Source of the DNA: an uncultured Actinomycetes bacterium
Lineage (GTDB): Bacteria > Actinomycetota > Thermoleophilia > Solirubrobacterales > 70-9
DNA: 64,000 nt
Reading direction: 5' to 3'
Assembly (NCBI GenBank): GCA_963797665.1
Contig: CAWCQE010000023.1
Span: forward strand, 219,845 to 283,844
The translations under genes and the position numbers were made by a program. Shown in pieces: positions 46,367-63,096 of the stretch (its first letter is position 1; each line of letters begins with the position of its first letter). Under the pieces are notes generated by a model. It did not search any database. It was given only the letters and a program-made list of their open reading frames with translations, and was not told where the DNA came from.

Positions 46367-46440
<74 letters not shown>

Positions 46441-46678: not shown

Positions 46679-47137
46679 TTAGTCGGTGGCGTGGGTTACG
46701 GGCTCGCCTTTGAAGGCTTCATCGACAAGCTTGTCAGCGTCTCCGTTCATCTCGCGGGGAACCCAGGACAGTCGCCATGACTTGAAGGGCTTGAGGGCTT
46801 CCCCGACTTCTTCGTAGAGCTCGGTAGCTCGCTCATTCTTGTTCCATCCACCCGTTATCTGGTTCACGACGTTCGCGGAGTCGCTGAACGCGGCGACATA
46901 GAGGAGTCGTTTCCCGGCGGCGAGCTTGAGACCGCGAATCAGAGCGAGGTACTCGGCCTCGTGTGGACTGCCGACGGGCCCCACTTTCTCGGCCACCCTG
47001 GCCAACACCGCGCCACAGCCGGGTTCCCGGAGAATGACCCCGATGGCGCCCTCCGCCTGGCCTTGCTCGTTGGCTCTCTTTCCTCCGTCGATGAACAGCA
47101 GGTAGTAGCCCTTCTTGAGGTCATCAACCATGAGCAA
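46679..47137 (-). CDS. RNase H (type 1, RVT_3/RNase-HI-like) family protein
   Basis: DGGKRANEQGQAEGAIGVIL (first Asp), EAEYLALIRGLKLAAG (Glu), YVAAFSDSANVVNQITGGW (Asp), REMNGDADKLVDEAF (Asn/Asp) match the RNase H catalytic DEDD arrangement. Confidence 0.7.
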   Translation of the reverse strand: MLMVDDLKKGYYLLFIDGGKRANEQGQAEGAIGVILREPGCGAVLARVAEKVGPVGSPHEAEYLALIRGLKLAAGKRLLYVAAFSDSANVVNQITGGWNKNERATELYEEVGEALKPFKSWRLSWVPREMNGDADKLVDEAFKGEPVTHATD

Positions 47138-48156: not shown

Positions 48157-48322
48157 CCGTCGGTCGGGCCCTTTCCAATCCTCCGCCCTGGCCCCAGACT
48201 GTTCGGCGTAGACTGGGCCCCGGCCCCGGATCGGACTCTGCTCGGGGTTCCCTGGCTACCGCCTCTGGGTTTACCGGCCCGGGCCATTTCTTGCCCTCTC
48301 GGCGCGAGATACTGCGTAGGCG

Positions 48323-48721
48323 ATGTCGCGGGAGAACGTGGAGATCGTGCTCCGGTCGCTTGAAGCGCAGAATCGGCGAGACCGGATGGCGCTGTCTGCC
48401 CTCGTTGAGCTCGTGTTCACCGCAATAGATACCCCTCAGCGGCCCTCGCGCTCGCGACCAGTCGCATACCCCATCGGAGTGCCACGCCTTGTACGACGAG
48501 TGGTGGTCGATGTTTGAGTACGTCCGATTCGAGACGTACGACGTCGCGGAGGCGGGCTCCGAAGTCGTAGTCCCGAACACCGCCTACATGCGGGGGCGCG
48601 GCGGGATCGAGGTGAGCGCGAGGAGCACGTTCGTGTACACGGTCGAGAACGGACAGATCACTCGCCTTCGGATGTCCAAGAGCGAGCCGAGGCACTCGAA
48701 GCCGTCGGGCTGCGGGAGTAG
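48323..48721 (+). CDS. NTF2/SnoaL-like small protein, paralog 1 (two apparent frameshifts)
   Basis: MSRENVEIVLRSLEAQNRRDRMALSALVELVFTAIDTPQ...EWWSMFEYVRFETYDVAEAGSEVVVPNTAYMRGRGGIEVSARSTFVYTVENGQITRLRM...(shift)...EALEAVGLRE*; paralog of the intact gene 61581..61979. Confidence 0.5.
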
Positions 48722-48728
48722 GCGCCGA

Positions 48729-48780
48729 CTTCTGCTTTGCGCGAGAGCAGCAGCCTTCCGCCTTCACGCGAAAGCGGAAG
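48729..48780. repeat. Tandem palindromic hairpin repeats (degenerate copy of 26-bp family + related CTTCCGC...GCGGAAG hairpin)
   Basis: CTTCTGCTTTGCGCGAGAGCAGCAG (48729-48753) and CTTCCGCCTTCACGCGAAAGCGGAAG (48755-48780) directly after the NTF2-paralog stop codon. Confidence 0.6.
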
Positions 48781-48974
48781 TCCCCGCTGCGGCTTGTGGC
48801 TCTGCGGATGAGGTCGCCTCGAATGCAAAACGCCCGGGAGCAAACGGGGCGAAAAGCTGCTTATTGAACACGAGGCTCGGTCAGGGGGTCCCGGACCCTG
48901 CACGCAAATGGAAGCGCCCGATCTCTCGACCGGCGCGCTGCGCTATCACGGATGCGGTTTTGCTCGGCCGTGCG

Positions 48975-49742
48975 TCAGTGCGTGTACTTCACCAACTGCT
49001 CCATGTCTGACCCGCCGGAGACGTCGACCGCAAGAACCGCCTGGCCGCTGCCCTTGGCATAGAACTTGATCTCAGAGGCGTTTGGCTCGATCGGGGAGAA
49101 GTCCTCGGTCATGAGGGCCGGCTTGAAATGGCCAGCGGGAACCCGGGCCTGCCCGTCGAGAGCGAGAACTCGCGACTGGTCCTCGGCCACGCCCTTCGAG
49201 TACTCCTCGCGGTAGGACAAGCCGACCGTGGGCTTTGCCGGCAGCGCGACCCCGGGCATGTTGCCGTCGACACCCGCCTCCCACGAGCCGTTGTCACGCG
49301 GATGGCCGTGGACGTATTCCACCGTGTGCTCGCCGAAATACCAGACGTTCCCGCACTTGTCCTGGGCGTACCAATCCCTGGTCTTCTCGACCGGCTTGCC
49401 CTGATGCCTGACGACGTCCCTGATAACGCGGGCCTTGATCCCGTCGGCGATCATCTTCGTCCGTCTGGTCGCCTTGATCACGTCCCGGTTCACCGACCCG
49501 TCGGAGTAGTCAAGGACGCGATAGACCCAACGGCTGCCGACGGTCATCGGCCATTGGCGGTTGTTGATGTTCGCGCTGAAGTCAGCCGGGTGGAGATGGA
49601 CGGGGTCAGCCCCCTGCGGCAACGCCGGGCACTGCTGCGAGGTTCCGCCACTTGCCGCCCCACCGAGCGGCAACACCAACGCCGCGGCCAGAACGCCGAC
49701 CGTGGCGGCGCCCACCTTGATCTGGACTGATCTGTTGGCCAT
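48975..49742 (-). CDS. Secreted hypothetical protein (signal peptide, no recognised domain)
   Basis: N-terminal MANRSVQIKVGAATVGVLAAALVLPLGGAASG signal; 255 aa with typical globular composition; lower GC than core. Confidence 0.55.
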   Translation of the reverse strand: MANRSVQIKVGAATVGVLAAALVLPLGGAASGGTSQQCPALPQGADPVHLHPADFSANINNRQWPMTVGSRWVYRVLDYSDGSVNRDVIKATRRTKMIADGIKARVIRDVVRHQGKPVEKTRDWYAQDKCGNVWYFGEHTVEYVHGHPRDNGSWEAGVDGNMPGVALPAKPTVGLSYREEYSKGVAEDQSRVLALDGQARVPAGHFKPALMTEDFSPIEPNASEIKFYAKGSGQAVLAVDVSGGSDMEQLVKYTH

Positions 49743-49851
49743 GCTTGCGCTCCTTTTCGCGTCGGCTCCTTTGGTCGCAGAGTTGTGGCGGAGCGAGATG
49801 AAATGCCCGTGAAAAGACGTCTATCGGGGGCACGGCGAGATCCGGGCGTTC

Positions 49852-50058
49852 ATGGACGAGTTCTTCGCGAGTTGGGACGAAGTTCGTATAGAGATCGCTT
49901 ACGGCCCGGTAGAGGTCGAGGACGGCCTCTTGATCGCCGGGAACGTCACCTCACGTGAGGGCATCGAAGTTCAGGCTCGAAGCGCATGGCTGATCACGCT
50001 TCGGGACGCCAGCAGACCTCGCTCACGCTCTTCCAGACCAAGCAGGAAGCCCTCGAAG
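49852..50058 (+). CDS. NTF2/SnoaL-like small protein, paralog 2 (truncated/frameshifted)
   Basis: ...IEIAYGPVEVEDGLLIAGNVTSREGIEVQARSAWLITLRD...(shift)...LFQTKQEALEAAGLRE*; same C-terminal peptide and same downstream hairpin as paralogs 1 and 4. Confidence 0.4.
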
Positions 50059-50069
50059 CCGCCGGGCTG

Positions 50070-50095
50070 CGGGAGTAACGCTTTATCGACTTTTG
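50070..50095. repeat. 26-bp palindromic hairpin repeat copy
   Basis: CTTTTGCTTTGCGCGAAAAGCAGAAG (10-bp arms, GCGCGA loop). Confidence 0.6.
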
Positions 50096-50347
50096 CTTTG
50101 CGCGAAAAGCAGAAGACTTGACGGATGCCGATCACCTGTCATCGCTGCGGCCGCCCGCCCGATCCCGAGCGCGCGGACCTCGACGGCTAGCTGATCCTCG
50201 ACGCGGGAGGACGGCTGGACGCTCGTCGTCTGTCCGGACCGCCAGACGGACGCCGAGCGCCAAGGCGTCCGGTTGCTGCCCGGGAAGCGCGGCTAAGGCT
50301 GACCCTCTGCCCGCCTCGACGTCAAGCGGGCCCGAAGCCGATTCGCG

Positions 50348-51022
50348 TCAGCTGAGGCTGAACGGCGGATACCGGTCGGTGATCAGCAGGAACGCGTACG
50401 CCGTAACCCGGTTTCCCCATCGCAAGACGCCCTCGACGAAGTGGAACAGGCCCTCCGGGTAGCGGCCGGTGAAGAGGATCGCGAACCAGGCGATCACGAC
50501 ACAGACGAAGGCCGCGATCCAGAGGAAGAAGAGGACGATGTAGTGGGGGATCGCCAGAAACCACTTGACCAGCGGCAGCCACCGGTTCAGATCCCGCTCC
50601 ACGTCCGGGTAGGGAAAATCGAGATGCACCGACTGCTGCTCGTCGGTGGACGGATAGCGATCGTCCATCAACGCCAGATAGACAGCGACTCGGTTGCTGA
50701 ACCGCAGGAACTGGAGGTTCCAGTCGTACCACCAGCGGGGGTACTTGAGGCGGAAGACGATCATCAGCAGGGTGGCAAGGAAAAGGATCCCGGCGACGGC
50801 GACGGCGCCGCCGCCCCACCCGTTGCCGCCGCCGCCGAGCGCCGCGAGCACGATCAGGATCGGGATCACGGTGAAGATCCGAAGCCCCGTCGTGAGGCGG
50901 TTGAGCGGCCGATCGGGGTAGTCGACCGAGAACGTCAGCGGATAGGCGCCATCGGATGGCGCGGTAGGGGGCTCGGGCTGGGTTGGCTGGGTCGGACCCT
51001 CAGGTGCGCCGGGCTGTTCCAC
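50348..51022 (-). CDS. DUF4389 domain membrane protein
   Basis: ...YPLTFSVDYPDRPLNRLTTGLRIFTVIPILIVLAALGG...RYPRWWYDWNLQFLRFSNRVAVYLALMDDRYP...ITDRYPPFSL matches DUF4389 conserved blocks; GAGGAGG RBS + GTG start at 51020-51022. Confidence 0.65.
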   Translation of the reverse strand: MEQPGAPEGPTQPTQPEPPTAPSDGAYPLTFSVDYPDRPLNRLTTGLRIFTVIPILIVLAALGGGGNGWGGGAVAVAGILFLATLLMIVFRLKYPRWWYDWNLQFLRFSNRVAVYLALMDDRYPSTDEQQSVHLDFPYPDVERDLNRWLPLVKWFLAIPHYIVLFFLWIAAFVCVVIAWFAILFTGRYPEGLFHFVEGVLRWGNRVTAYAFLLITDRYPPFSLS

Positions 51023-51250
51023 TTGCGCCCTCCTCTCGCCTCTCGGCCGGACCCTATAGCGCTCGCGCGGACGGTGCAAGCGCGAAGAGCTACTACACGG
51101 ACAGGGCGAGGTGAAAGCCTCCTGCCGCGTTTGCGAAGCACCCAGGTGTTGGGGAGCGCGGGGCCGCCCCAAGCCCATCCCTAGCGCTGTGCTTGACGAC
51201 CCGTGGTCCGCGGCTGCCGCCGCTGGAGGTATGAATCCAGATGTGACCGG

Positions 51251-51468
51251 GCGCTTCTGCTTACACGCGAGGGTGTCGCACAAACGGTCTCCGCGACATG
51301 CACCCTACGGATGCTCAGATAGGGCCTAGAGCGGCTGGGGAGGCGACTTGCAGGACGAGCGCGAGCCGGACGAGGCCGAGGTCGCCCGGATTGTTAACGC
51401 ATGCGGAGAAGCGCTTCTAACGGCTCGGTTGGGGTTTGTGCGACAGCCTCACGCGAAAGCAGAAGCGC
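51251..51468. repeat. MITE-like element: about 35-bp inverted repeats (containing half-sites of the 26-bp hairpin family) flanking about 150 bp
   Basis: Left GCGCTTCTGCTTACACGCGAGGGTGTCGCACAAAC (51251-51285) versus right GTTTGTGCGACAGCCTCACGCGAAAGCAGAAGCGC (51434-51468): reverse complements with few mismatches; no ORF inside. Confidence 0.45.
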
Positions 51469-51642
51469 GTGCGCGGCACTTGCTGCGTTGGTGAGCATTC
51501 GCTTCCAGGCTGGACCAGCCGCATGCCCGTCCCGCGGACGCTGCCCGACAGCTAGGTGCCGAGGTTCCGAAAGTGGGCCAAGCAGTGGCACATTCGATTC
51601 TGGGAACAGCGCGACAGTCAGGCCCACTCGCTAGACGACTGA

Positions 51643-52050
51643 TCAGCTACAGGGAAGCTCGGCGCCGCTGGACTCCACCGCCCGCCGAACCGCGTTGCCA
51701 CACTTGACGCGAATGTGAAGCCCGTACCTCCGCGCCAGTCTGGTGGCCGTGACCAAGGCGCGAAGGCCGCGCGGATCGACGAAGCTGACCCGCCTCAGGT
51801 CGAGGGTGATCGACGCGGTCTGGGGCCTCTCGATGATCCGTCGCAGGGAGTCGCCGAGCGTCCACGCGCTGCTGACGTCGATCTTGCCGACCGGCCGGAT
51901 GGTCGTCGAGTTGCCGATCTGCTCGGTCAATACCGAGAGCCGCTTCGAAGCCGTCGCTGATTCCTCCTCAAGGTCGGGTCGAGGACCCGCTTTGCGTCCT
52001 GCTCGGTGATTGCGACTCGTTCTTCGTGCTACCGCTACCCGGGTCGCCAC
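51643..52050 (-). CDS. STAS-domain protein (anti-sigma-factor antagonist, SpoIIAA/RsbV-like); N-terminal extent uncertain
   Basis: ...LSVLTEQIGNSTTIRPVGKIDVSSAWTLGDSLRRIIERPQTASITLDLRRVSFVDPRGLRALVTATRLARRYGLHIRVKCGNAVRRAVESSG matches STAS fold including the conserved phospho-acceptor region (D.S.V.F.DS-like). Confidence 0.6.
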   Translation of the reverse strand: MATRVAVARRTSRNHRAGRKAGPRPDLEEESATASKRLSVLTEQIGNSTTIRPVGKIDVSSAWTLGDSLRRIIERPQTASITLDLRRVSFVDPRGLRALVTATRLARRYGLHIRVKCGNAVRRAVESSGAELPCS

Positions 52051-52376
52051 GCATCAAGCAGTGAGATTCCTGACTGACCGCAAGCGCCGCGCTCATTCCC
52101 CCGAAAACAGGACGGGGCCGCCGGAAATCGACGGCCCACGCCTCTGCCCACCTGCGTCCTCAGGGGGACGGACCAAGCTATACCCGTAAGTTCCGAAGCG
52201 ATTCGCACGAAGGCGGTCACATTCCCGACGGCGGCGGGACGCACGAGGATGATCCGTGCGTCGTAGCGGGAACGAATCGGGCCACCTCCGCGATTACGGT
52301 CGTTCCTCTTGGGCTCGGCCGGCGTCGGGGACTGATCGAGTGACCGCTGGTCGGGCCCGGTCTTGCCCTGCAGCTG

Positions 52377-52768
52377 TTACGAAGCGGTCCCCGCGAGCGG
52401 CATCTCGATCCAGACGGAGCCGTGGGAATCCCCATGAAGCGATCCCCAGTGCTGGGCGAGGGTTCGAGTCAATAGACGCCCCAACTCCGCTCCCCGAGCT
52501 CTGGACGCCGCGGTCGAAGCTCGTAGGCTGCCGCGCCGTCCCTCACCTCCACGCGCAGGTGGCGATCGCCCAACTCGATGCGCAGGGTGATCGGGCGGCT
52601 GTCCGTCTCCTCGCTTCGCACCGCGCCGGCGACGAGCTCGCTGACTATCAGGTGCAGGTCGATGAAGGCGTCGCTCTCGAGCCGGTCGCGAAACTCTTTC
52701 AGGGCCTCCCGCGACCACCCGGCGCTCTCGGGCTTCGCGGGCAGTTCGACTGTCAAATACTCCTGCAT
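52377..52768 (-). CDS. RsbW/SpoIIAB-like anti-sigma factor (HATPase_c Ser kinase), apparent frameshift
   Basis: MQEYLTVELPAKPESAGWSREALKEFRDRLESDAFIDLHLIVSELVAGAVRSEETDSRPITLRIELGDRHLRVEVRDGAA (N-box/helix), C-terminal ...GSVWIEMPL in second frame; paralog of 60776..61135. Confidence 0.5.
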
Positions 52769-52932
52769 CCGCCTCTGATCCTGATCTACCCCTTGCGGAT
52801 CTAGGCATGCTCCGATTTTGCGATCGATTGTTGGCTTCCGGTTAAGCCCAGACGGTGGGCGAGCCAGATAACCTGGCCCGGTTGCCTCGACGCACCCAGT
52901 TGGAAACCTGATAGACCCGGATGGCCTGAAAC

Positions 52933-53292
52933 GTGGAGCTCGGTGTTGAAGCGACCCCGATCGGCGATGGTCACGCGCTGCTCATCGCCGTTAGCGGCGA
53001 GCTTGACCTTTCGACCTGTGATCAGCTGAAGCCGGCCGCCGACGAGGCGGTCTTTGGACACCGGCCGCTGATCCTCGACCTCTCTGGCTGCACGTTCATC
53101 GACTCGAGCGGGCTGCGTCTCGTCCTGCAGGTTGCCAACGGCCTCGCCGGGGACGAGGTGCCGATGGCGGTCATTGCCGAGTCCAACGTCCGCAAGATGT
53201 TCTCGCTTACGGCGATCGACCAGACGATCCCGCTGTTCGACACCCGCCAGGAAGCCCTCGTGTGGCTCGAGGGGAAGCCGGCGGCGAGCTGA
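52933..53292 (+). CDS. STAS-domain anti-sigma-factor antagonist
   Basis: LLIAVSGELDLSTCDQLKPAADEAV..RPLILDLSGCTFIDSSGLRLVLQVANGL; divergent from the RsbW-like gene. Confidence 0.7.
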   Translation: MELGVEATPIGDGHALLIAVSGELDLSTCDQLKPAADEAVFGHRPLILDLSGCTFIDSSGLRLVLQVANGLAGDEVPMAVIAESNVRKMFSLTAIDQTIPLFDTRQEALVWLEGKPAAS

Positions 53293-53539
53293 AACGTCTC
53301 GCACTGGTCGATCAGGTCCGACCATTCCGCAACCACCTCGGGACGCAATTGCTCGGGAGCCGCTCGGCGAGCGCGTGGACTCGCCGCCCCGCGTTTAGGT
53401 ATCGAGAGTTTCGGAAGCTCCTCCTTGGCTTGGCCGGTCGGAGAACCCACTCTCCGTCGCGGGACGACCGACAGCCAAGCTGCACTGGAGCCCTGGGCCC
53501 CCGGGGCTCCAGCTACGTCTGCGCGATGCCGCCCTCACC

Positions 53540-53592
53540 AACGCCGGGCTGCGGAAGTACGCAGCGCTTCTGCTTTGCGCGAAAAGCAGAAG
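53540..53592. repeat. Ghost 3' end of an NTF2-paralog gene (…NAGLRKY) plus perfect 26-bp hairpin repeat
   Basis: GCCGGGCTGCGGAAGTAC matches the GCCGGGCTGCGGGAGTA(A/G) gene ends at 48705/50047/61590, followed by CTTCTGCTTTGCGCGAAAAGCAGAAG (53567-53592). Confidence 0.55.
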
Positions 53593-53899
53593 TCACGCCT
53601 GCAGCCGCACCGCTCAACAATCCGTGCGTGTAGCGAGAAACGAATCGGCCTCCCGATCTGCACTCACGACCGGTACCGCTTTTGGGACCGACTGCCGTGT
53701 CCGATGCGTCCAGATCGTCCACGCTCGGGGACGATGGGGACGCGAGGGACGCCCACGGACGCATCTACACCGATTGCCGCCCGGCTGGGGGCCGAAAGGT
53801 CGCCGGTTCAGATCCGGCCGCCCCGACTATGCGAAAGCCCGCTTCCGAAGCGGGCTGTCGGCATGTCGGCCGGTCCTGTGATCCGCCGGCGAAGGGCTC

Positions 53900-54266
53900 G
53901 TGGTACCAGCCGTGGTACCGGGCGGGGAGGCCGGCGACCCTCGGCGCGCGATAGTTACGCTCTGCTCGTGGAGCGGAGGGAGATCCTTCAGGCCGCCCCG
54001 TTCGGGGAGCGCATTCGCGGAGCAGGAGCTGGACGAGCTCGCCGAGTACTTCGTGGAGACGGATAAGTGGCGCCGGTTGTACGCGGGCGACGTGGACATT
54101 GTCTACGGGCCAAAGGGCTCCGGGAAAAGCGCCCTCTACTCGCTGCTGGTCATCAAGCAGCAGGGAGTTATTCGATCGCGGCATCCTGATCGTCCCGGCG
54201 GAGCCTGCGACGGTGACCAGCCCGGCACACGCGTCCACCTCTTCGCGCCGCGACCGCCTGGCGTGA
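53900..54266 (+). pseudogene. Truncated P-loop NTPase (N-terminal Walker A fragment only)
   Basis: ...AFAEQELDELAEYFVETDKWRRLYAGDVDIVYGPKGSGKSALYSLLVIKQQG...(shift) ELFDRGILIVPAEPATV... then stop; only about 100 codons of an ATPase, no downstream continuation. Confidence 0.3.
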
Positions 54267-54298
54267 TCTCCGCCCCAGGCGGGTAGCGGAGCCTCCGA

Positions 54299-55288
54299 AT
54301 GACCGGGTTCCTGCTCGCGGCGGCATTCGCGCTGATTGTCGGCGGCGCGATCCTGTTCACGAACGCGATCGAGTGGGCGGGCAAGCGTCTCGACCTCGGT
54401 GAGGGAGCCGTGGGGAGCCTGCTGGCCGCAGTCGGTACGGCCCTGCCGGAGTCGGTGATTCCCGTTGTCGCGGTGCTCGCGGGCGGCGAGTCCGAGGAGG
54501 TCGCGATCGGCGCCATCGTCGGCGCCCCGTTCATGCTGGGCACGGTCGCCATGCTGCTGGTCGGCGCCAGTGCGCTGGCGTTCCGCCGATCGCGAAGCAG
54601 CGGCTCGGAAGTGACCCCCGACGAGCGCTCTCTGCGTCGCGACCTCCACCTCTTTCTACCCTGCTTCGCCATCGGCCTCGCCCTCGGGCTGATCGACTCG
54701 ATGCCCGTTCACATCGCCGGGGCGGTCGGGTTGCTGATCGCCTACGCAGCCTACGTCCGGCGGACGGTCCGACACAGCGGCGAGAGCGAGGACGCGGACG
54801 AGCTCAGGCCGCTCACGTTCGACCCCACCAAGGAAGACCCGCCTCGCAACGTCGCGATCGTCGCCCAGGTCGTTTTCGGGCTGTTGATGATTGTCGGCGG
54901 CGCCGAGCTCTTCGTCGAGGAGGTCGTGACAGTCGCCGAGGCGCTCGGCATCTCCGCCCTGGTGCTTTCCCTCGTGCTCGCGCCGCTCGCGACCGAACTC
55001 CCGGAGAAGCTCAACAGCGTGATCTGGATGCGCCGCGACAAGGACACCTTGGCGGTCGGCAACATCACCGGGGCGATGGCGTTTCAGTCCACCGTGCCGG
55101 TCGCCCTCGGTCTCGTGGCGACCGACTGGGACCTCGACCGGTTCGCGCTCGCCGCCGGAGTCGCTGGCCTCGTCGGCGGCGCGCTGGCCCTGTGGCGGCT
55201 CCCGAAGGACAGGCTGGGAGCACCGGTGGTAGTCGCCTGGAGCGCCCTGTTCGTCGGCTTCGTCGCCTTCGCCGCGCTGAGCCCCTAA
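54299..55288 (+). CDS. Ca2+:cation antiporter (CaCA) family sodium/calcium exchanger (YrbG-like)
   Basis: Two alpha-repeat regions GSLLAAVGTALPES... and ...SLVLAPLATELPEKLNSVIW (conserved GTxLPE motifs), 10 TM helices. Confidence 0.8.
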   Translation: MTGFLLAAAFALIVGGAILFTNAIEWAGKRLDLGEGAVGSLLAAVGTALPESVIPVVAVLAGGESEEVAIGAIVGAPFMLGTVAMLLVGASALAFRRSRSSGSEVTPDERSLRRDLHLFLPCFAIGLALGLIDSMPVHIAGAVGLLIAYAAYVRRTVRHSGESEDADELRPLTFDPTKEDPPRNVAIVAQVVFGLLMIVGGAELFVEEVVTVAEALGISALVLSLVLAPLATELPEKLNSVIWMRRDKDTLAVGNITGAMAFQSTVPVALGLVATDWDLDRFALAAGVAGLVGGALALWRLPKDRLGAPVVVAWSALFVGFVAFAALSP

Positions 55289-55367
55289 CTGCGCTTGAGC
55301 TGAATCGAGATTGAAATGGCGCGAAGAAAGGAGCGCAGCCCTGGAATGCGTGCGGGGCCGGAGACGC

Positions 55368-57013
55368 TCAGGCGATCCGGTGGTCGAACACCGTCTCCAG
55401 CCGCGCCCCCTCGGCCTGGGGGTCGTGCACAGTCTTCGAGATAGTGAGACTCGCCTCACGCCCCTCGAGGCTCAGGGTCGCGATCTGGTTGTCGAAATAG
55501 GGGCCGCCGGCGAAGCGCCAGCGGATGCCCGCATCCTCGACCCCCGCCGCACCGGCGAGCATGCGGAGGAGCAACTCCGCGGGCCGCGTCGTCGCGGCCC
55601 TCACTGCGCGGCGCTCGTGCGCGTCCAGGGCCTTGCGAAACGGCGAGCACACCGCCTGATAGACGGCGCTGCTCACGTTCGCATCGCGCCGAAACGCCAC
55701 CTCCGCGAGGAACGCGTGGTGGACATCGCCGGAGAGAAGGCAGATTGAGGCCGGAGGGCGGCCACGCGCGCCGGAGCCCACCTCCTCGAGCAGACGGGCG
55801 AGTCGCGTGAACGAGCGCTGAAAGGCGCCCCAGTGGTCGCAGTCGACCGCGCGCCTCATCCGCTCGCCTACCGCCGCCACCGCATTCCCCCAGGCCCCGC
55901 CGCAGATCGCCTCGTTCCAGGCCTCCAGGTAATGGAGGCCGGGCGCGAGCAGGAAGGGATCTGAGGTCCCGATCAGCAGGTGGTCGAAGTCGCCGCGCAC
56001 CTTTTCCTGGACCCAGTCCCACTCCTCCTCATCGAAGATCGAGCGGCGGCCTTCCTCCAGGACGCGGCCCGTACGCACGTCCATCACGATGAGCCGCGTC
56101 GAGCCCAGATCGCGGTAGTAGCTCCACCGCTTCCCCTCTCGCTCACGATCCTCCTTGGCGGCGTACTCCCGCAAAATGGGCCCGGCGTCGTCGAGTTCGC
56201 GAACCTTCCGGTATAGGTGGTTTTGCTCTAGCTCGCGTGGCGAGAGGTTGCCAATGAATTGGTAGATCCAGTACGACACGAGTCCGGCGACCACGCGCTC
56301 GGGCCACCACGCCAGATCGCGCATGTCCTCGAGCCAGGAGCGGGAGATGTTCCAATCGTCGTGCATGTCGTGATCGTCGATCACCATCGCGATCGAGGTC
56401 GTCGAGAAGAGCCACCGAATCACTGGATCGCCCCACGACTCCAGGTAAAGACGGGTGTACTCCTCGAAGTCGGCGACCTCCTCCCCGGGGGGCGGGTCGT
56501 GTCCCTTCTTAAGCGGATGAAGTCGAGCGCCTGCGGCGAGACCTCGTCCGCGTACACCTGGTCGCCGAGCAGGAGCACGAGCTCCGGCCAGCGATCTGGC
56601 TGCGACTCGATCATCGACAGCGCGAGGGTGTGGAGGGCGTCCAGGCCGCGGCCGCGTTCGTCCTCGTCCTTCGGAAGGGTGTACGGGGGGTGATGGGGGA
56701 GCGCCGCCCGGCAGGAGCCAAAGATGATGTCGGTTCGCGCGTTCGGGTCGACGGTGCGGATGATGCTGCGCGGAAGCTCAGAGCCGGGATCGGGCCAGCG
56801 CGGCTCGCCGTCTAGAGAGACGCCGTACTCGTAGGCGGTCCCCGGCTCGAGACCGTCGATGCAGACGAGCGCGTAATGATGCCCTTCGACCCCGAACGTG
56901 GGGGTGCGGTGGCCGAGCGCCTCGACCTCGCACGGCCCGTCCGTCTCCACCCACAGGACGGCCTCCGTGTCCGAGACGTATCGCAAGACGGGGCCGAGGA
57001 GAAGCTCGGGCAT
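55368..57013 (-). CDS. PhoD-like alkaline phosphatase / metallophosphatase; one apparent frameshift near 56470
   Basis: N-terminal beta-sandwich (…VLWVETDGPCEVEALGH…), LLLGDQVYADE, MVIDDHDMHDDWN, ...GDVHHAFLAEV... PhoD metallophosphatase motifs across ORFs 56420..57316 and 55368..56423. Confidence 0.7.
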
Positions 57014-57126
57014 GCTCTGGTTGATACCCGGATCCGTCCGAGTCACCCGCCGGCCCGACAACATCCCCGAAACCCGCCCACCGGCCGAACGTGGCTGCCG
57101 TCCGACCTCTCCGCTGAGCGAACCCG

Positions 57127-57486
57127 GTGAGGGCGAGGCGACCGGCGAGGAGTCGAACACCTGCCCTCCTGTCGCGGTACACCCCCATCGAGCTCTTCTA
57201 CCGCAACCAGGGCGAGGAGAACTCGGGCTACCTGACCAACTCGTTCCTGACCTCGATCGCCGAGGCGGCGGGGGTAAAGGACATCGACAAGTGGAACAGC
57301 GATCGGCAGGACTCAAGGTGGGATGCGGTTCTGTCGAAGAACAGTACCGAGGCTCAGAATCTTGGCTTCACCGGCACCCCGTCGATCCTCGTCCAGGGAC
57401 CGGGCGGGCGTAAGCCCTTCGCGGCGATCCCGACGTTCTCGCAGATCCAGACCGCGGTCAAGGCTGTCCGGCAACGACCCGATTGA
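57127..57486 (+). pseudogene. C-terminal fragment of a DsbA-like thioredoxin-fold protein (CxxC-containing N-terminus missing)
   Basis: ...YTPIELFYRNQGEENSGYLTNSFLTSIAEAAGVKDIDKWNSDRQDSRWDAVLSKNSTEAQNLGFTGTPSILVQG... corresponds to the helical insert and C-terminal beta-strand region of DsbA-like proteins; no upstream thioredoxin motif. Confidence 0.4.
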
Positions 57487-57506
57487 GGGAGTCGGCAGCC
57501 GCAGGG

Positions 57507-57531
57507 CTGTCGCTTTGCGCGAAAGCAGAAG
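57507..57531. repeat. 26-bp palindromic hairpin repeat copy (degenerate left arm)
   Basis: CTGTCGCTTTGCGCGAAAGCAGAAG immediately after the DsbA-fragment stop. Confidence 0.5.
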
Positions 57532-57836
57532 TTTCCACTCACTCTATTGTCCGACCGCTTCGCAGCTCCGGAGTGAGCGGTCTGAACCTTGGGTTGTTGT
57601 CGCCGAGACCAGCCGCGTATGGCCCCGACCCGCCACAGAGAGAGCGCGCCAGCCACCATCAGCAACAGCCGACGGCCCGAGCAAGCCACGCATTCGCCAC
57701 GGCGCGCTGGCTCACCTCGTTGATCTCGCCGACCGCTAGCTCGAGCAGCGTCTCGTCATGCAAGAGGGGCAGCTTGACGGTTGCGTTAGGACGGCAGGTA
57801 TACGTAGGCGGCCCGAGGTCGGGTAGACAGTAACCC

Positions 57837-59425
57837 ATCCGACCGCTTCGCCTCTACCTGACCCTCTCCGGGGGAGCATCGCTGGGCGCCTACGAGGCTG
57901 GGGCCGCGGCCGGCCTCGCCCTGGCAACGCGCTATCTCGACGCCGAGGAGGGCCAGGAGGTCACCGTCGATGCGATCGGCGGTGCGTCCGCGGGTGCGCT
58001 GGTGAGCTTCTTCACCGCCCACGCCCTACTCGAGGGTCTCGATCCCGAGGCGCTCCTGCACGAGACGTGGGTCGAGCGCGTCACGCTGCCGTTGCTCCGC
58101 GCCAAAGACTCCAACGCGCTGCTCTCCTTCGACGAGCTCCGCGAGCGCGTGCCGGAGGTGCTCGCCTCCGACGGGCCGGCGGCCGCCGATCGCGACGGCA
58201 TCGACTACCGCCAGCGGCGCCCGCTCGCCCTGCACGTGCAGGTCACCGGCCTGCGCGGCCTCACCTATTCGATCCAGGGCCTGCGCCAAGACGCGCCGGT
58301 GACGGGCGCGACCTACGCCGACTGGGGTCGGTTCGAGCTTCGCCCGGGCGGCGGATCGCAGCAGATGCTCGAGCCGGAGGGTCGCTCGCCCTGGACTTCG
58401 TCCTCGCGTCCGCCGCGAGCCCTGGGGGCTTCGCGCCGGAGCTACTCGACCGCCGCCCGGACGTTCCAACCTACGAGCAGCATGGGATCGAGGACTTTCC
58501 CGACTCCGGGCACCTGTGGTACACGGACGGTGGGCTGCTTGGCACGCGGCCGCTCGGTCGCGTGATCGCCGCCGGTCAGGAGCTCCACGGCGTCGATGAG
58601 CGCGCCCACCGTCTCCACCTGCTGATCGACCCGCGCTCCGAGAACGCCGCGCTCGACACGTGGAGCGACCCGGACGCCGACCCCAGCTGGCAGACCGGCG
58701 CCTCGCGCGCCCTCGCCATCCTGTCCGAGCAGAGCCTCTTCGACGACATGCGCCGGATCGCGGAGGAGAACGCGAGGATCGAGTGGGTCGAGCGGCTCGC
58801 GGAGAGGCTGGCCCCCAGGCTCGATGACGACGCCGCCTCCGCCCTGCGAGAGTTCATCGCCGAGGTCGAGTCCGACAGCCCGGAAGGGCACGGCGGAGAT
58901 GGGGAGACCCGGGACGGCGACCTCACCACGCTCCTGGGCCGTGCGCTACGAGAGATCGGCGGCCTCGTCGGTAAGGAGCGAGTCTCGATCGATGTGATCT
59001 CGCCCTTGGTTCTGGCCGGCAGCGGAGACGAGGAGGTCGGCGCCCTTTTGGCCGGAGAGTTCATGGGAGATTTCGGCGGCTTCCTCAGCCGCAACCTGCG
59101 CGCGAGCGACTTCGCGCTCGGCTACCAGAGCACGATCGCATGGCTGGACCGGGGGTTGCCCGCCTGCGGGGTGGACGAGGAGACCGTGCGCCGGACGGTG
59201 GAGTTCGTCGAGTCAAAGCGCCGCTACGACCCCGACGAGATCCGAAGCGGAGAAGCCGAACTCTCCGACCTCTCACTCACCGACCGGTTCGAGCTCGTGC
59301 GCCTTGGCACCCACGCCGCCAGGGTGCTCGGCGCCGGGATCTTCGACGTGCGCTCGCGCATCCCCGACTCCCTCGGCCGCGCGATCGAGCGGACGCGGGA
59401 GCGACTGTCGGGGGGCGGAAGCTAG
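57837..59425 (+). CDS. Patatin-like phospholipase family protein (about 530 aa); no canonical start codon in frame, one apparent frameshift near 58390
   Basis: LYLTLSGGASLGAYEAG (oxyanion GG/SGG block), GxSxG nucleophile IGGASAGAL, DGG catalytic-Asp motif LWYTDGGLLGTRPLGRVI; long C-terminal helical extension. Confidence 0.6.
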
Positions 59426-59484
59426 ACGGCTCGGCGCTGCCATTCCGCGCACGTCATTGCCACCATCGCTAGGCGATCGGCCGG

Positions 59485-59829
59485 CTAGGACTCGGTTTCG
59501 CCCCTGCTGGTGAGCGGCTGCGCCGCCCAGAACCAGCTAAAGAGGATCACGGCACCGACCATCGCCGCCGCCAGAAACGCAAGCCCCGCGATCGAGAGCG
59601 AATTGGAGACGAGGAGGACATGCTCCTTGTCCTTTTGGCGGAAGTGGAGGCGATGCCATGCAGACGGGGCGATCAGGAGCACTGACGCCACCGCCGTGGC
59701 GCACAGGGTGCCGAAGAACGGTGCCCGCTGGAAGGAGGTGGTGGAGGTGAATCCCTGGGCCAAGCGGGCGTAAAGCGGGTCTCCCAGCGCCGCGTCGCTG
59801 CTCTCAGAACCCGCATCAGCTTCAACCAT
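59485..59829 (-). CDS. Small membrane protein (2-3 TM), unknown function
   Basis: Hydrophobic segments FFGTLCATAVASVLLIAPSAW and LSIAGLAFLAAAMVGAVILFSWFWA; 114 aa. Confidence 0.4.
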   Translation of the reverse strand: MVEADAGSESSDAALGDPLYARLAQGFTSTTSFQRAPFFGTLCATAVASVLLIAPSAWHRLHFRQKDKEHVLLVSNSLSIAGLAFLAAAMVGAVILFSWFWAAQPLTSRGETES

Positions 59830-59848
59830 TCCGCTTTAACCTCCGCCG

Positions 59849-60181
59849 ATGGACTGGGCACAGCTGCCCTTCGGCACGCGGGAACACCGCGTCGCGTTCA
59901 ACGAGGCGGCATGCCGGCATCTCAACGAGCGCAAGGCGCAATGGATCGACCACGGACTACCGACCGCCGGCTTCCGATGTGAGTGCGGAACCATGCACTG
60001 CGGTTCTCGGTTTCGCCTCTCTCAAGAGCATTGGGATGAGGCGCGGGCGCGAGCTGACCGCTTCATGGTCGCGCCCGAGCATGTCGCACCGGATGTAGAG
60101 GTGGTGGTCAAGGAGTACCCCGAGTTCTGGCTCGTCGAGAAGCGGGGCGAGGCCGAGGAGATCGTCGAGGATCTGGAGTAA
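59849..60181 (+). CDS. Zinc-ribbon-like small protein, paralog A (CEC-x4-C family, unknown function)
   Basis: ...AFNEAACRHLNERKAQW...FRCECGTMHCGSRFRLSQEHWDEARARADRFMVAPEHVAPDVEVVVKEYPEFWLVEKRGEAEEI aligns along full length with 61186..61521. Confidence 0.5.
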   Translation: MDWAQLPFGTREHRVAFNEAACRHLNERKAQWIDHGLPTAGFRCECGTMHCGSRFRLSQEHWDEARARADRFMVAPEHVAPDVEVVVKEYPEFWLVEKRGEAEEIVEDLE

Positions 60182-60662
60182 CGCCCTCGTCGTTCGCCTT
60201 GGCGCGGAAGATCCGGTTAACCCACTAAGCCCATTGCGGCGATGTGAAGCGCACCCTCGTTGGGTTGCGGGCTACTACACAGGTGCCAACTCCACGGGCG
60301 TTCACAGGCCACCGCGTACGAAACTGCCGTAGCGGGCGGATTCCGGCCAGTGGCGCGGGTAGCCTCCGGGCACGGGGTACGGAGGATGAGCGTTCATAGC
60401 TACCGCCTCACCTGTCGAGGCGTATTGTCGCCGTACGTGATTCTCGAGTTGTTTCGGCGCGGCGTCTACCGCGCTTGGGGCGGTCCCGAGCGTCCGGCGT
60501 GGTAGCCAGGAATGGTTGCCGGCGAGCGCTGACGGCCTCTGGCATCCAACGCGAGCGATGCAGACATCCGGTCCTTCTTGAACGTGGCTTGTTCCGCTCG
60601 GACCAGCCTCGCTCACGCCCGTCAATTTCGCGGGATAGAGTGGGCTCACGTGTTCCTGAGCG

Positions 60663-60688
60663 CTTCTGCTTTTCGCGCAAAGCAGGAG
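60663..60688. repeat. 26-bp palindromic hairpin repeat copy (inverted orientation, loop TCGCGC)
   Basis: CTTCTGCTTTTCGCGCAAAGCAGGAG = reverse complement of the consensus with 1 mismatch. Confidence 0.55.
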
Positions 60689-60775
60689 CGCGACTCTAGG
60701 CGAGGGCTCAGCCGCTCCCTCTTCCCCTTAACGCAGGCGTTCGAAGGACGGCCGCCGCGGGTACCGGAGCCAGTG

Positions 60776-61135
60776 ATGGCCATCAGGCTGGAACTGGAGC
60801 CGGGGCCGGAGGCCGGGCACCAAGCGCGCGACGAGGTTCGCTATCTCCTCCGCGACCGGGTAGACGACGGCTTGCTAACCGACTTGCAGCTGATCGTCAG
60901 CGAGCTCGTGACGAACTCGGTGCGGTACGGACCGGGCGAGACAATCGAGGTTGGGATCGCGGTTGCTGAGGGTGGTTCGATCACGGGCGAGGTCGAGGAC
61001 CACGGCAGGGGTGAAGTCGCGATGCGTGAGATCACTGACGAGGGCGGTGGCTTTGGCTTGCGGATCGTCGACGCCCTGGCGAGCCGCTGGGGCGTCCATG
61101 AAGGCAGCACCCAGGTGTGGTTCGAGCTCAGCTGA
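60776..61135 (+). CDS. RsbW/SpoIIAB-like anti-sigma factor (HATPase_c Ser/Thr kinase)
   Basis: MAIRLELEPGPEAGHQARDEVRYLLRD...LTDLQLIVSELVTNSVRYGPGETIEVGIAVAEGGSITGEVEDHGRGEV...GGGFGLRIVDALASRWGV (N, G1, G2 boxes of GHKL kinases). Confidence 0.65.
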   Translation: MAIRLELEPGPEAGHQARDEVRYLLRDRVDDGLLTDLQLIVSELVTNSVRYGPGETIEVGIAVAEGGSITGEVEDHGRGEVAMREITDEGGGFGLRIVDALASRWGVHEGSTQVWFELS

Positions 61136-61185
61136 GCCCCCTAGCCCGACCCGCGCTTAGAACCGGACGGGGGTAGCCTCTGTGC

Positions 61186-61521
61186 ATGGCCGGAGAGCGC
61201 GAGCGGCGGCTGGGGGAGAACGAGACCATCTTCCGGGCTGCCAACGAGCGCATGGCAAGCTGGGAGGAACGAGACCGCCTCGAAGCGGTCGAGCTCTACT
61301 TCTGTGAGTGCGCCGACCCGACCTGCACGCAGAAGGTCAGGCTACGCGGCTCCGACTACGAGCGGGTGCGCGGTGATCCGACCCACTTCTTCGTCGTGCC
61401 CGGGCACGAGGTCGCGGATGTGGAAGCGGTGCTCGAGTCGCACTCGGATTGGGTCCTTGTCGAGAAGGATGAGGCCGAGGCCCGCGACGTAGCCGAGGAA
61501 ACGGACCCCCGGCAGGACTAG
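61186..61521 (+). CDS. Zinc-ribbon-like small protein, paralog B (CEC-x4-C family, unknown function)
   Basis: ...ETIFRAANERMASWEERDRLEAVELYFCECADPTCTQKVRLRGSDYERVRGDPTHFFVVPGHEVADVEAVLESHSDWVLVEKDEAEARD; shares CEC...C, F.V.P.H..DVE.V and W.LVEK blocks with paralog A. Confidence 0.5.
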   Translation: MAGERERRLGENETIFRAANERMASWEERDRLEAVELYFCECADPTCTQKVRLRGSDYERVRGDPTHFFVVPGHEVADVEAVLESHSDWVLVEKDEAEARDVAEETDPRQD

Positions 61522-61550
61522 GCCACACCCCTCAGCGGGGTGGCGCGCAG

Positions 61551-61575
61551 CTTCCGCGTCTCGCGCAAAGCAGAG
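61551..61575. repeat. 26-bp hairpin repeat copy (inverted orientation, degenerate) serving as 3' element of the minus-strand NTF2 gene
   Basis: CTTCCGCGTCTCGCGCAAAGCAGAG; on the minus strand follows ...CTGCGGGAGTAG (…GLRE*). Confidence 0.5.
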
Positions 61576-61580
61576 TGGCG

Positions 61581-61979
61581 CTACTCCCGCAGCCCGGCGG
61601 CTTCGAGGGCCTCGTCCCGGCTCGGATATTCCGTGATCTTCAGGATCTTGCCGTCCTCGACGCTGAACACTCGAAACAGGTCCGTGTGAATCCAGGTCTG
61701 CGCGTCGCTGCCCTTCAGGCCGCGTCCCGCTACCCGCTCTACGGTGACGACACAATCTCCGGCTTCGATCATCTCGTCGGCTTCGACCCGGTACTCGTCG
61801 TACGAGTCGGACAACGAATCGAGGAATCGCGTGATCTCGTCGATTCCCTGGAAGGTCCCCGAGCCGCCAACGAGCACCAGCTGTATTTCTGGGTGCCAGA
61901 TTTCGTGGAGAGTGGACCAGTCTCTCGCGCCCCGCGCGGCGACATCTCGCCGCACGACCTCCACGTTCCCCTGCGACAT
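61581..61979 (-). CDS. NTF2/SnoaL-like (ketosteroid-isomerase-fold) small protein, intact paralog
   Basis: MSQGNVEVVRRDVAARGARDWSTLHEIWHPEIQLVLVGGSGTFQGIDEITRFLDSLSDSYDEYRVEADEMIEAGDCVVTVERVAGRGLKGSDAQTWIHTDLFRVFSVEDGKILKITEYPSRDEALEAAGLRE*. Confidence 0.65.
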   Translation of the reverse strand: MSQGNVEVVRRDVAARGARDWSTLHEIWHPEIQLVLVGGSGTFQGIDEITRFLDSLSDSYDEYRVEADEMIEAGDCVVTVERVAGRGLKGSDAQTWIHTDLFRVFSVEDGKILKITEYPSRDEALEAAGLRE

Positions 61980-62184
61980 CGCCTACGCAGTATCTCGCTC
62001 TTGCGAATCGGTCGCGGCGTTTTTGCGCGGCGCAGGCGCAGAGTGAGCCGGGCGCCAGTCCAAGAAATAAGCGGACCCTTACCAAGAGCCGCAGCCACCG
62101 AGCGGGCGAGTTCCTGGACAGTCGGGACCGCGATGCGGAACGACGTGGCCGGCCGCGAGATGCTTAGCATGGCCGTACCTCGAC

Positions 62185-63096
62185 ATGGGCGATGATGCGG
62201 AGAGAAACGAACGCGAGCTTCGGGGGCTGCGCCTCGAGGTCGACGAGCAACGGCGCGATATTCGCAAGGCCGACGATCGAGAGCGCCGTCAGGACACGCT
62301 ATTAGCCCGCCTTCGCGACGAGGCGGCGGTGCGTGATGACGAGGCGGCCGCGCTGCAGGATCGTCTCGAGGCCGCCGAGCATGAGCTCGGGGACCTGCGC
62401 GCGATTCGGGATGCGCTTACCCCGCCCGAGTTGCCGCAGCGGCCCGGCTTGGATCTCGCCGCGGCCTTCTTGCCCGCCATCGCCGAACAGGTAAGCGGCG
62501 ACTTCTACGTGGTGGCTGAGGGGCCCCAGGATTCCACCGTTCTCGTAGTCGGCGATGTAGTCGGCCACGGTTTGAACGCGGCACGCCGTTCAGCGTTCGT
62601 TCGGACAGCGTTTGCCGCGACAGCCCCCTTCTCCGACGATCCGTGCCGGCTGCTGAGTTGGGCGAACACCGCCCTGGTCGAGCGGGCCGGCATCACCAGC
62701 GAGTTCGTCACCGCCGGCTGCGTTACGTATCTGCCGGACGAGCAGCTCCTGCGCTGGGCCTACGCCGGCCATCCCCGGGCGCTGTGGCTGGACAGCGGCC
62801 AGGAACTCGTGGCGCCCACGCAGGGAACCCCGCTCGGGATTCGGCCGGACCTGGGACTCACCGAAGGTTCGCAGCGGTCGGTGGCCGCCGCGGGAGTGCT
62901 GCTCTACACCGACGGCCTAACCGAAGCACGGGGCGCCGACAGGCGGTTCGGGATCGGCGGCGTCCGGGCCGCCCTGGGCGGCCTTAGCCGGCCCTCACCG
63001 GCCGAGGCGGTCGCCATCCTGCGCGCGCGCGTTGCCGACTTCGGGTACGGCGCCCTGACTGACGATCTCTGCCTACTGGCCGTCCGCGTCCGCTAG
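62185..63096 (+). CDS. PP2C-family Ser/Thr phosphatase (SpoIIE/RsbU-like) with N-terminal coiled-coil
   Basis: SGDFYVVAEGPQDSTVLVVGDVVGHGLNAARRSAFVRTAF (metal-binding D..GDV.GHG), ...LLYTDGLTEARG (second Asp block); N-terminal 100 aa Glu/Arg-rich coiled coil. Confidence 0.75.
   Translation: MGDDAERNERELRGLRLEVDEQRRDIRKADDRERRQDTLLARLRDEAAVRDDEAAALQDRLEAAEHELGDLRAIRDALTPPELPQRPGLDLAAAFLPAIAEQVSGDFYVVAEGPQDSTVLVVGDVVGHGLNAARRSAFVRTAFAATAPFSDDPCRLLSWANTALVERAGITSEFVTAGCVTYLPDEQLLRWAYAGHPRALWLDSGQELVAPTQGTPLGIRPDLGLTEGSQRSVAAAGVLLYTDGLTEARGADRRFGIGGVRAALGGLSRPSPAEAVAILRARVADFGYGALTDDLCLLAVRVR

Follow-up and report, generated by a model that had tools for sequence, protein, structure and literature searches.

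Four pieces of gene that end in the same nucleotides and are each followed by the same hairpin raise the question of how such a shared end arises and how it is kept. They lie in a 64,000-nucleotide (nt) stretch of an uncultured Actinomycetes bacterium of the Solirubrobacterales (contig CAWCQE010000023.1, positions 219,845 to 283,844), which we call the window, and belong to a family of small SnoaL_2 genes with an NTF2-like fold. The first-pass annotation of this DNA had explained them by recent within-genome duplications of a gene together with its terminator, followed by pseudogenisation. Our analysis leads to another answer. The genes are ~400-bp cassettes, found clade-wide in Solirubrobacterales/Thermoleophilia-like Actinomycetota, whose ends are fixed as DNA and whose interiors are ancient paralogs; we consider it probable that such cassettes are turned over by recombination at their conserved ends and at the hairpins, and that they then decay by deletion.

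The 17-mer GCCGGGCTGCGGGAGTA from the shared tail, searched with up to three mismatches, was found at four sites of the window: 48704 (one mismatch), 50061 (none), 53543 (one) and, on the minus strand, 61582 (none). Only 0.73 sites were expected by chance and four or more occurred in none of 100 shuffles, which bears out the four copies with a common tail. Each of these tails is followed within 5–12 nt by a copy of the hairpin (CTTCTGCTTTGCGCGAAAAGCAGAAG). A hairpin 3′ of all four copies had been described before and is present, but further cassette pieces (63513–63541 and 63545 to ~63700) and extra hairpins exist in the window.

The intact cassette occupies 61581–61998 on the minus strand and consists of a start element (61980–61998) and an open reading frame (ORF) for a 132-aa SnoaL_2 protein (61581–61979), which ends in DEALEAAGLRE, matches protein P0001 at 100% and scores 51.3 bits against Pfam SnoaL_2 PF12680 (cut-off 27); it is intact, as annotated. 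The plus-strand copy at 48323–48721 is a full-length cassette pseudogene of the type ending in ...ENGQITRLRMFQERAEALEAVGLRE, which the family hidden Markov model (HMM) matches in two frames. Three-frame translation and alignment show it broken at three points: by a +1 shift in the early part of the gene, by a stop that arose by substitution (TAG at 48426–48428) and by a −1 deletion at ~48677, where GTCC stands in the nucleotide alignment in place of the GTTCC of intact homologs. At 49780–50078 (plus), a 5′-truncated cassette pseudogene (family HMM positions 44–132) has lost its first ~43 codons and shows an in-frame TGA at 49810–49812 and a frameshift near 50010; its tail is intact and ends in TAA. 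Both had been called frameshifted copies. They are indeed pseudogenes, but the second had been drawn too short and the lesions go beyond frameshifts: because substitution stops and a truncation are among them, the decay is real and not merely the product of indel sequencing errors, a question on which it bears that the closest relatives are Nanopore-only metagenome-assembled genomes (MAGs) (PMC12313526). A metagenome probe for a near-identical relative of the 48-kb pseudogene returned no exact matches.

The remaining pieces are smaller. At 53522–53559 (plus), only a tail is left (RDAALTNAGLRK and stop), a solo tail or ghost, followed by a perfect hairpin at 53567–53592; the family HMM detected no cassette remnant upstream of it, even at very lax thresholds, in agreement with the original description. 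A second solo tail, of the type found at internal junctions (ALEAAGLSQ and stop, CTCTCG variant), lies at 63470–63541 (plus), with the tail itself at 63513–63541 and a remnant of ~70 nt upstream. The canonical GCG junction connects it to the decayed head and N-terminal part of another cassette (63545 to ~63700, plus), in which ATA stands in place of the ATG, the frame has shifted and the body is cut short. These 63.5-kb remnants gave an 80% nucleotide match to a tail-head junction and the next cassette in L011, one of the comparison loci (L001, L002 and so on) that we fetched from related genomes. A doubtful, possibly decayed tail-like stretch was also noted at 57486–57503, before the hairpin at 57507–57531. 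The cassettes of the window are therefore seen as intact (61 kb), pseudogene (48 kb), truncated (50 kb) and tail-only (53 and 63.5 kb).

If these pieces were recent duplicates, their interiors should be alike. They share only 25–28% amino-acid identity between interiors, and at the DNA level only the ends align (39–59 nt at 78–94%), the interiors being unalignable. The nucleotide alignment that the first-pass annotation had proposed as a check has thus returned ancient, divergent paralogs, the very case it had set against its own model. Each copy is closer to genes of other genomes than to its neighbours in the window: the 48-kb type shows 79–81% nucleotide identity to genes in L001, L079, L024 and L040, and the 61-kb type 92–97% to genes in L002, L003 and L112 and 73% to a gene of L001. 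The ratio of nonsynonymous to synonymous substitution rates (dN/dS) between orthologous types is 0.2–0.5 (0.2–0.35 for the 61-kb cassette), which rules out diversifying selection on the interiors and gives no sign of a hypermutation that could have driven recent copies apart. These interiors are old paralogs on which purifying selection acts.

Both termini of the protein are conserved throughout the family, with an N-terminal MSQENVEVVRR and a C-terminal EALEAAGL[RS]E in each of the 30 homologs that we inspected, the most distant at 35% identity, so the identical C-terminus is a family hallmark and not a sign of recent copying. In favor of a recent duplication of gene plus terminator, the same hairpin does follow all four tails at similar spacing, and the 48- and 61-kb copies match at their ends over 47 and 39 nt at 90–94%. 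Set against the divergence of the interiors, the closer relatives elsewhere and the family-wide termini, and against the position of the hairpin outside the conserved unit (see below), this explanation is hardly credible.

By sequence and by modelled fold, the product of the 61-kb cassette belongs to the SnoaL_2/NTF2-like superfamily. Its AlphaFold2 model (predicted local distance difference test score 92.1) shows the NTF2 alpha+beta cone and, at residues 121–127, an additional C-terminal helix, and a Foldseek search with this model returned TerC, SnoaL-like cyclases and LEH, with template modelling (TM) scores of about 0.7 and a probability of 1.00. The best profile match in the PDB was 3ec9 (E = 1.9e-16), and the solved structures closest to the protein are those of uncharacterised NTF2-like proteins, TerC, SnoaL-type cyclases and LEH. 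The protein thus resembles the SnoaL_2/NTF2-like group (PF12680; PDB 3ec9, 3grd, 3fgy, 3ebt and TerC 6d34) by Pfam and PDB profile matches and by a TM-score of about 0.74. It differs in that the MSQENVEVVRR start and the helix EALEAAGLxE (residues 121–132) of the cassettes fall outside the aligned region of the solved structures. The family HMM also matches the 48- and 50-kb pseudogenes. PADLOC and NCBIfam searches with the NTF2 protein and its neighbours identified no defence system and no named family.

The conserved ends could be followed across the comparison loci. Every cassette begins with an invariant head, ATGTCGCAGGAGAACGTGGAG, and closes with an invariant tail, GCCCTCGAAGCCGCCGGGCT(GCGG/TTCG)GAGTAG, and the variable interior between them defines an old paralog type. 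Where cassettes stand in tandem, they are separated by 3 nt and the junction has the same nucleotides everywhere, GCCCTCGAAGCCGCCGGGCT(GCGG/TTCG)GAGTAG GCG ATGTCGCAGGAGAACGTGGAG, i.e., TAG-GCG-ATG. The GGAG of the tail then lies 6 nt 5′ of the next ATG, at Shine-Dalgarno spacing. L001 contains such an array of at least 8 genes within 7 kb, and arrays of two to four cassettes were found in L003, L108, L109, L010, L011, L024, L040, L064 and L079. In gene calls, two adjacent cassettes sometimes appear fused into one ORF where the junction stop is lost, as in P0104 (210 aa) and at L109 10403–11164.

First cassettes of arrays and solitary cassettes sit behind a 19-nt start element, GCGAGATACTGCGnnGGCG. 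It precedes the first array cassette in L001, L003, L010, L024, L030, L040, L049, L082, L100, L108 and L110. In the window, it lies directly 5′ of the ATG of the 48-kb pseudogene (GCGAGATACTGCGTAGGCG, 48304–48322, plus), and an identical 20-mer is found at 61977–61996 on the minus strand. It may be a −10-like, near-leaderless promoter; a consensus scan of 46–64 kb for sigma-70-like promoters called none, and hence none at the start element.

Shared nucleotides at gene ends might simply reflect a constrained peptide written in the codons of a GC-rich genome, together with the need for a Shine-Dalgarno sequence, with the hairpins as ordinary terminators. The termini are indeed conserved as peptides in all homologs, and the tail GGAG is spaced from the next ATG as a Shine-Dalgarno sequence would be. 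We therefore compared the codons at the ends of 39 intact genes from about ten genomes with the usage in the cassette interiors. GAA was used at 36/36 head or tail positions (interior usage 22%), CTC at 38/38 (41%), GCC at 36–38 of 36–39 per position (45%), GGG at 35/39 (25%) and TCG at 37/39 (28%), whereas an invariant glycine of the interior, taken as a control, uses all four codons. Three of the fixed codons, GAA, GGG and TCG, are non-preferred, and they are fixed even in array-terminal and solitary cassettes. Changes of the amino acid encoded by this GAA still leave two of the three bases in place, the codon then being AAA, GGA or CAA, and tails persist where they are solo and non-coding. 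The ends are fixed at synonymous sites, beyond what the protein constrains, and the conservation of the tail as nucleotides that had been proposed is upheld and proves much stronger than could be detected from the window. The explanation by protein constraint and codon bias, to which we return with the hairpins, is very unlikely.

Comparison of contexts then showed where the conserved unit stops. The homology of the 61-kb cassette to L002, L003 and L112 starts 15–19 nt 5′ of the ATG and ends with the stop codon; the flanks are unrelated. The stop codon is followed by the hairpin in the window, by another cassette via the 3-nt junction in L003, by a 68-nt spacer, a start element and another cassette in L112, and by a different repeat in L002, where the stop codon itself is lost. 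As the homology extends from −19 to the stop codon in all four contexts, the hairpin is not part of this unit. Conversely, the syntenic locus L086 is 90% identical over window positions 60652–61571 and contains the hairpin of the 61-kb copy, while the cassette beyond it is absent. A given cassette thus moves between contexts as a block, from start element to stop codon, and the claim that the duplicated unit includes the downstream hairpin has to be abandoned. A metagenome probe for the right flank of the 61-kb cassette gave no exact matches and hence no empty site.

A second recurrent element, CTTCATCGnCTTGACCCnCCGAGCCTCnnnTGAGAGGnTCGG, stands 3′ of some cassettes instead of the hairpin (L002 1412–1460, L042 ~525, L079 ~7820, L082 ~4000 and L090 ~5510). 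It contains a −35-like TTGAC and a small hairpin of its own.

The hairpin is a separate palindrome, dispersed through the genomes of the clade, and resembles the repetitive extragenic palindromes (REP) and the REP doublets forming hairpins (REPIN). The window island holds six short copies and one long form. The A-type copy behind the 53-kb ghost (53567–53592, plus; CTTCTGCTTTGCGCGAAAAGCAGAAG) is perfect, with a 10-bp stem and a 6-nt loop, and another A-type hairpin follows the 50-kb tail (50090–50115, plus; CTTTTGCTTTGCGCGAAAAGCAGAAG). The 48-kb pseudogene is followed by a doublet (48729–48780, plus), in which a degenerate A-type hairpin (48729–48753) precedes a B-type one (48755–48780; CTTCCGCCTTCACGCGAAAGCGGAAG). 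The copy next to the intact cassette (61551–61575, minus) is the most degenerate of the tail-linked ones and lies between two convergent genes, 61186–61521 (plus) and the NTF2 cassette (minus). Three forms have no recognisable cassette gene or intact tail: an A-type variant after a DSBA C-terminal fragment (57507–57531, plus), which has only the doubtful tail-like stretch mentioned above; an A-type copy in forward orientation on the minus strand (60663–60688); and the long palindrome (51251–51468). The latter measures 218 bp, with 35-nt inverted arms (GCGCTTCTGCTTACACGCGAGG...) of 89% complementarity enclosing 148 nt, folds with −104.5 kcal/mol (z −4.6) and has a 78% identical copy in L104 (4713–4917). 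Its terminal inverted repeats begin with the hairpin-stem sequence, and it looks like a REPIN or a miniature inverted-repeat transposable element (MITE).

An exact search for the 18-nt hairpin core, with each species represented by a single genome, yielded 104 stretches. MAGs of at least 64% GC labelled Solirubrobacterales, Thermoleophilia or "uncultured Actinomycetes" account for about 85 copies, and the low-GC matches are at chance level. The conserved palindrome is ~28–30 nt long. A B-type hairpin (...GCTTTCACGCGAAAGCAGAAG) follows the A-type in 17/91 copies and the reverse order was never seen; that B is an inverted variant of A is only suggested by its sequence. Rfam gave nothing for the hairpin, the tail or the junction, either at the gathering threshold on the whole window or at E ≤ 1 on 46–64 kb. 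In viral contigs, the cassette junction was not found, and the hairpin gave one chance match only.

The hairpins do stand at gene 3′ ends, as the terminators assumed both by the first-pass annotation and by the explanation through protein constraint would, and their stems are stable. However, the run of T expected 3′ of an intrinsic (Rho-independent) terminator is absent, a consensus scan does not call them, and their sequence is conserved over ~85 sites, so this function was rejected. A small hairpin formed by the tail and its linker at 53548–53565 was also considered and discarded, as it is not general in other copies.

Hairpin and tail are nevertheless associated. Of 91 hairpins, 22 (about a quarter) carry a tail at a fixed distance and 63 stand without one. 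The census of tails in the fetched loci (n = 95) counted 36 followed by a hairpin, 20 followed by a head and ~10 credible solo tails with neither. Among the 36 tail-hairpin sites, 12 have a full gene, 4 a partial gene and 20 no detectable remnant. The hairpin is fused to a CTGCGGGAGTAG-type tail in fixed orientation and spacing: its orientation relative to the tail is uniform in 32/33 and the spacer measures 5–7 nt in 26/33. The CTGCGGGAG (LRE) type accounts for every hairpin-linked tail (33/33), compared with 8/16 tails at internal junctions (Fisher p = 3e-5). The 53.5-kb ghost is one instance of this common module of tail and hairpin. There are also solo tails that lack a hairpin and others immediately 5′ of first array cassettes, and head-plus-hairpin deletion derivatives were found in L075/L100 and L011.

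Such a module could itself be mobile, i.e., a small non-autonomous element of the REPIN or MITE kind made of a tail and one or more hairpins, whose 5′ arm was derived from the 3′ end of a cassette and whose insertions would be the ghosts (53522–53592 in the window). The stereotyped orientation and spacing of the composite, the fixed order of tail, A and B, and the 20/36 composites with near-perfect tails and no gene remnant are what would be expected of it. The same is true of a tail in inverted orientation beyond the hairpin in L010, L079 and the window (53550–53609), and of the long forms in the palindrome family. On the other hand, the left boundary of ghost tails is variable, solo tails exist without hairpins and most hairpins (63/91) without tails. 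Intermediates resembling stepwise deletion are present (the 50-kb copy and the head-plus-hairpin deletions in L011 and L075), and neither a target-site duplication nor a transposase was identified. For these reasons we find a mobile module quite unlikely. The scan of 25 window ORFs gave no match to a transposase family; REP-associated tyrosine transposases (RAYT) were not searched genome-wide.

Where the island of the window could be compared with other genomes, its blocks change at hairpins. Positions 60488–60696 match L084, ending just past the 60.67-kb hairpin; positions 60652–61571 match L086, spanning the 60.67-kb to the 61.55-kb hairpin; and positions 53567–53829 match L102, whose homology begins with the left edge of the 53.57-kb hairpin. 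The hairpin at 60663–60688 is thus an exact joint, with the L084-shared block on its left and the L086-shared block on its right, and every edge of the comparator alignments in the island that could be checked is on a hairpin. Three genomes have the hairpin in common and differ to one side of it. This position at mosaic joints between genomes makes recombination at the hairpin repeats plausible. The earlier suggestion of hairpin-mediated recombination survives to that extent, but such recombination does not account for how the paralogs arose.

All cassette pieces and hairpins of the window lie beyond a tRNA-Arg(CCT) gene (46367–46440), from which the GC content falls from ~71% to ~65% up to the window end. 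The 3′ end of this tRNA has a 29-nt copy 77 nt downstream (46495–46523, 97% identity) and a weaker copy at 48228–48247. On this sequence evidence, the region looks like an integration hot spot with remnants of attachment sites. An RNase H (RVT_3) gene adjoins the tRNA (46679–47137, minus), and the same gene is found beside integrases and arrays in L001 and L109, where tyrosine recombinase (Phage_integrase) genes lie 2–6 kb from the arrays. This points to a variable hot spot shared by the window, L001 and L109.

An alternative is a dedicated, integron-like system, in which the junction or tail, possibly with the hairpin, would be a site-specific recombination site placed in the coding termini and a putative recombinase would move whole cassettes. 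Solo tails with or without hairpin would then be empty or residual attachment sites. Several observations fit: the homology limited to the cassette in four contexts, the ends fixed at the nucleotide level, the ghost tails directly 5′ of the first array cassette (at −5959 in L010, +3035 in L011, +3719 in L079 and 63513–63545 in the window), the modules of solo tail and hairpin just past the stop codons of unrelated genes, and the tyrosine recombinase genes near the L001 and L109 arrays. However, the junctions between array cassettes are 3 nt and contain no palindrome, the solo tails do not share one left edge, and no recombinase gene was among the island ORFs scanned. The integrases nearby resemble the ordinary ones of prophages and integrative and conjugative elements at a tRNA hot spot, and the arrays are spread over many loci rather than gathered on one platform. 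We regard such a dedicated system as doubtful.

Turnover by recombination at the ends and hairpins, followed by deletion, remains the reading that we consider probable. Recurrent recombination or gene conversion between cassette ends of ~30–65 nt would keep these ends identical, and translational coupling could help to hold them so. The same recombination would insert, swap and delete cassettes, ectopic recombination at the hairpins would reshuffle the flanks, and the window would be one variable island next to tRNA-Arg, with its cassettes at successive stages of loss.

Several points weigh against this explanation. The crossover points cannot be located from the homology of the ends, because every cassette shares them, and a gene conversion limited to the ~30-nt ends of otherwise unalignable genes would be unusual and is not demonstrated. 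The left edges of solo tails vary (12–40 nt), as would be expected from decay by deletion no less than from recombination. As all comparison loci were obtained through the hairpin or through the protein, the frequencies given here are biased by ascertainment. Pairing and covariation past the conserved 6-bp stem of the hairpin were no better than in shuffled columns, no U-tract was found after it, and the consensus terminator scan skips the repeat hairpins. Finally, neither a recombinase, in a scan of the island ORFs, nor a circular intermediate, nor a direct pair of insertion and empty site was found.

The island contains other features that were recorded along the way. Right after the 53-kb hairpin, an element of ~240 nt within 53660–53915 (plus) is 78–89% identical in at least six other loci or genomes. 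It opens with a hairpin (GGTACCRCTTTGGTACC) and ends with a tRNA-like acceptor/T-arm minihelix (GGGGCCGAAAGGTCGCCGGTTCAAATCCGGCCGCCCCGAC) and then a terminator-like hairpin; compensatory changes are present in the T-arm, and Rfam and ARAGORN made no calls. Judged from these sequence features, it may be an undescribed multi-copy structured RNA.

Disrupted genes are also present in the island. The gene for a PhoD-like phosphatase lies in two parts, 56420–57316 (DUF7800) and 55368–56423 (PhoD), the DSBA-like fragment at 57127–57486 covers the C-terminal third of the domain only, and the overlapping ORFs 58002–58565 and 58067–59425 might be a frameshifted patatin-like gene, which Pfam did not confirm. 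Partner-switching regulators stand densely among the cassettes (51643–53292, 60578–61135 and 62185–63096), with two genes for STAS anti-sigma-antagonists, two for HATPase_c_2 (RsbW-like) proteins and one for a SpoIIE/PP2C phosphatase. Two paralogous proteins of 110 and 111 aa (59849–60181 and 61186–61521, both plus) have a common Cys-rich motif, FxCECxxxxC, and no match in Pfam, NCBIfam or PADLOC; one of them follows a hairpin and the other precedes one. Far from the cassettes and unrelated to them, a c-di-AMP riboswitch of the ydaO/yuaA type was detected at 3211–3363 (minus, 72.5 bits).

In the literature on SnoaL arrays, NTF2 cassettes and SnoaL_2 expansions, we found no description of such an arrangement. 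It is a tentative possibility that these genes represent an undescribed gene-cassette system, in which a ~65-nt junction within their last and first codons would serve for the exchange, insertion and excision of whole NTF2-like genes of ~400 bp, with the fused hairpin as array terminus or landing pad. If so, it would be a cassette system functionally analogous to integrons without attC or IntI. Should the termini be recombination substrates, bacteria would have in them a simple means of assembling and rearranging arrays of small enzyme- or ligand-binding proteins with no need for integron machinery, and the oddly invariant ends of an abundant "ketosteroid isomerase-like" family in soil Actinomycetota would be explained. 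The head, the tail and the hairpin can serve as ready probes for counting how often cassettes turn over in long-read metagenomes of soil. Automatic annotation has to reckon with solo tails and with fused ORFs at cassette junctions, and the hairpin family, which marks rearrangement joints, can mislead synteny analysis and assembly.

The cassettes share with integron cassette arrays, including clusters of attC sites lacking an integron-integrase (CALIN), the chaining of small, mostly promoterless ORFs in one orientation, and the occurrence of discrete units in different contexts with a conserved boundary sequence and gene-less remnant sites. NTF2-like alpha+beta barrel proteins occur among integron cassettes as well (Bal32a). 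Integrons are not known in Actinomycetota. In contrast to integrons, the junction here is 3 nt in or next to coding sequence and lacks an attC-type imperfect palindrome; RYYYAAC/GTTRRRY core sites are absent and the terminal hairpin lacks GTTRRRY; no platform of IntI, attI and Pc was seen among the island ORFs scanned; and the arrays are short and scattered over many loci. Because no attC lies between the cassettes, membership in the integrons was rejected.

We also compared the hairpin with the description of REP and REPIN elements mobilised by RAYT transposases (PMC3116915, PMC3337134). It resembles them as a short (~26–30 nt), intergenic, clade-specific palindrome present in many copies at gene 3′ ends, and in its occurrence as singlets, A-then-B doublets and long inverted-repeat forms. 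It differs in that no RAYT gene was identified, with 25 window ORFs scanned, in that its clade is outside those with described REPINs, in that about a quarter of its copies are fused in fixed orientation to the tail of a coding gene, and in that a conserved 5′ GTAG is found only where the tail supplies it.

A third comparison is offered by the pilS/pilE genes of Neisseria, whose silent and expressed cassettes have conserved flanks and a downstream Sma/Cla repeat. Unlike those of Neisseria, every cassette described here forms an entire ORF, from a start codon to a stop codon of its own, the interiors are stable types (dN/dS 0.2–0.5) rather than hypervariable, and there is no single expression locus. 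What the two would have in common are variable segments between nucleotide-conserved stretches, a conserved downstream repeat and a homologous exchange confined to the conserved parts.

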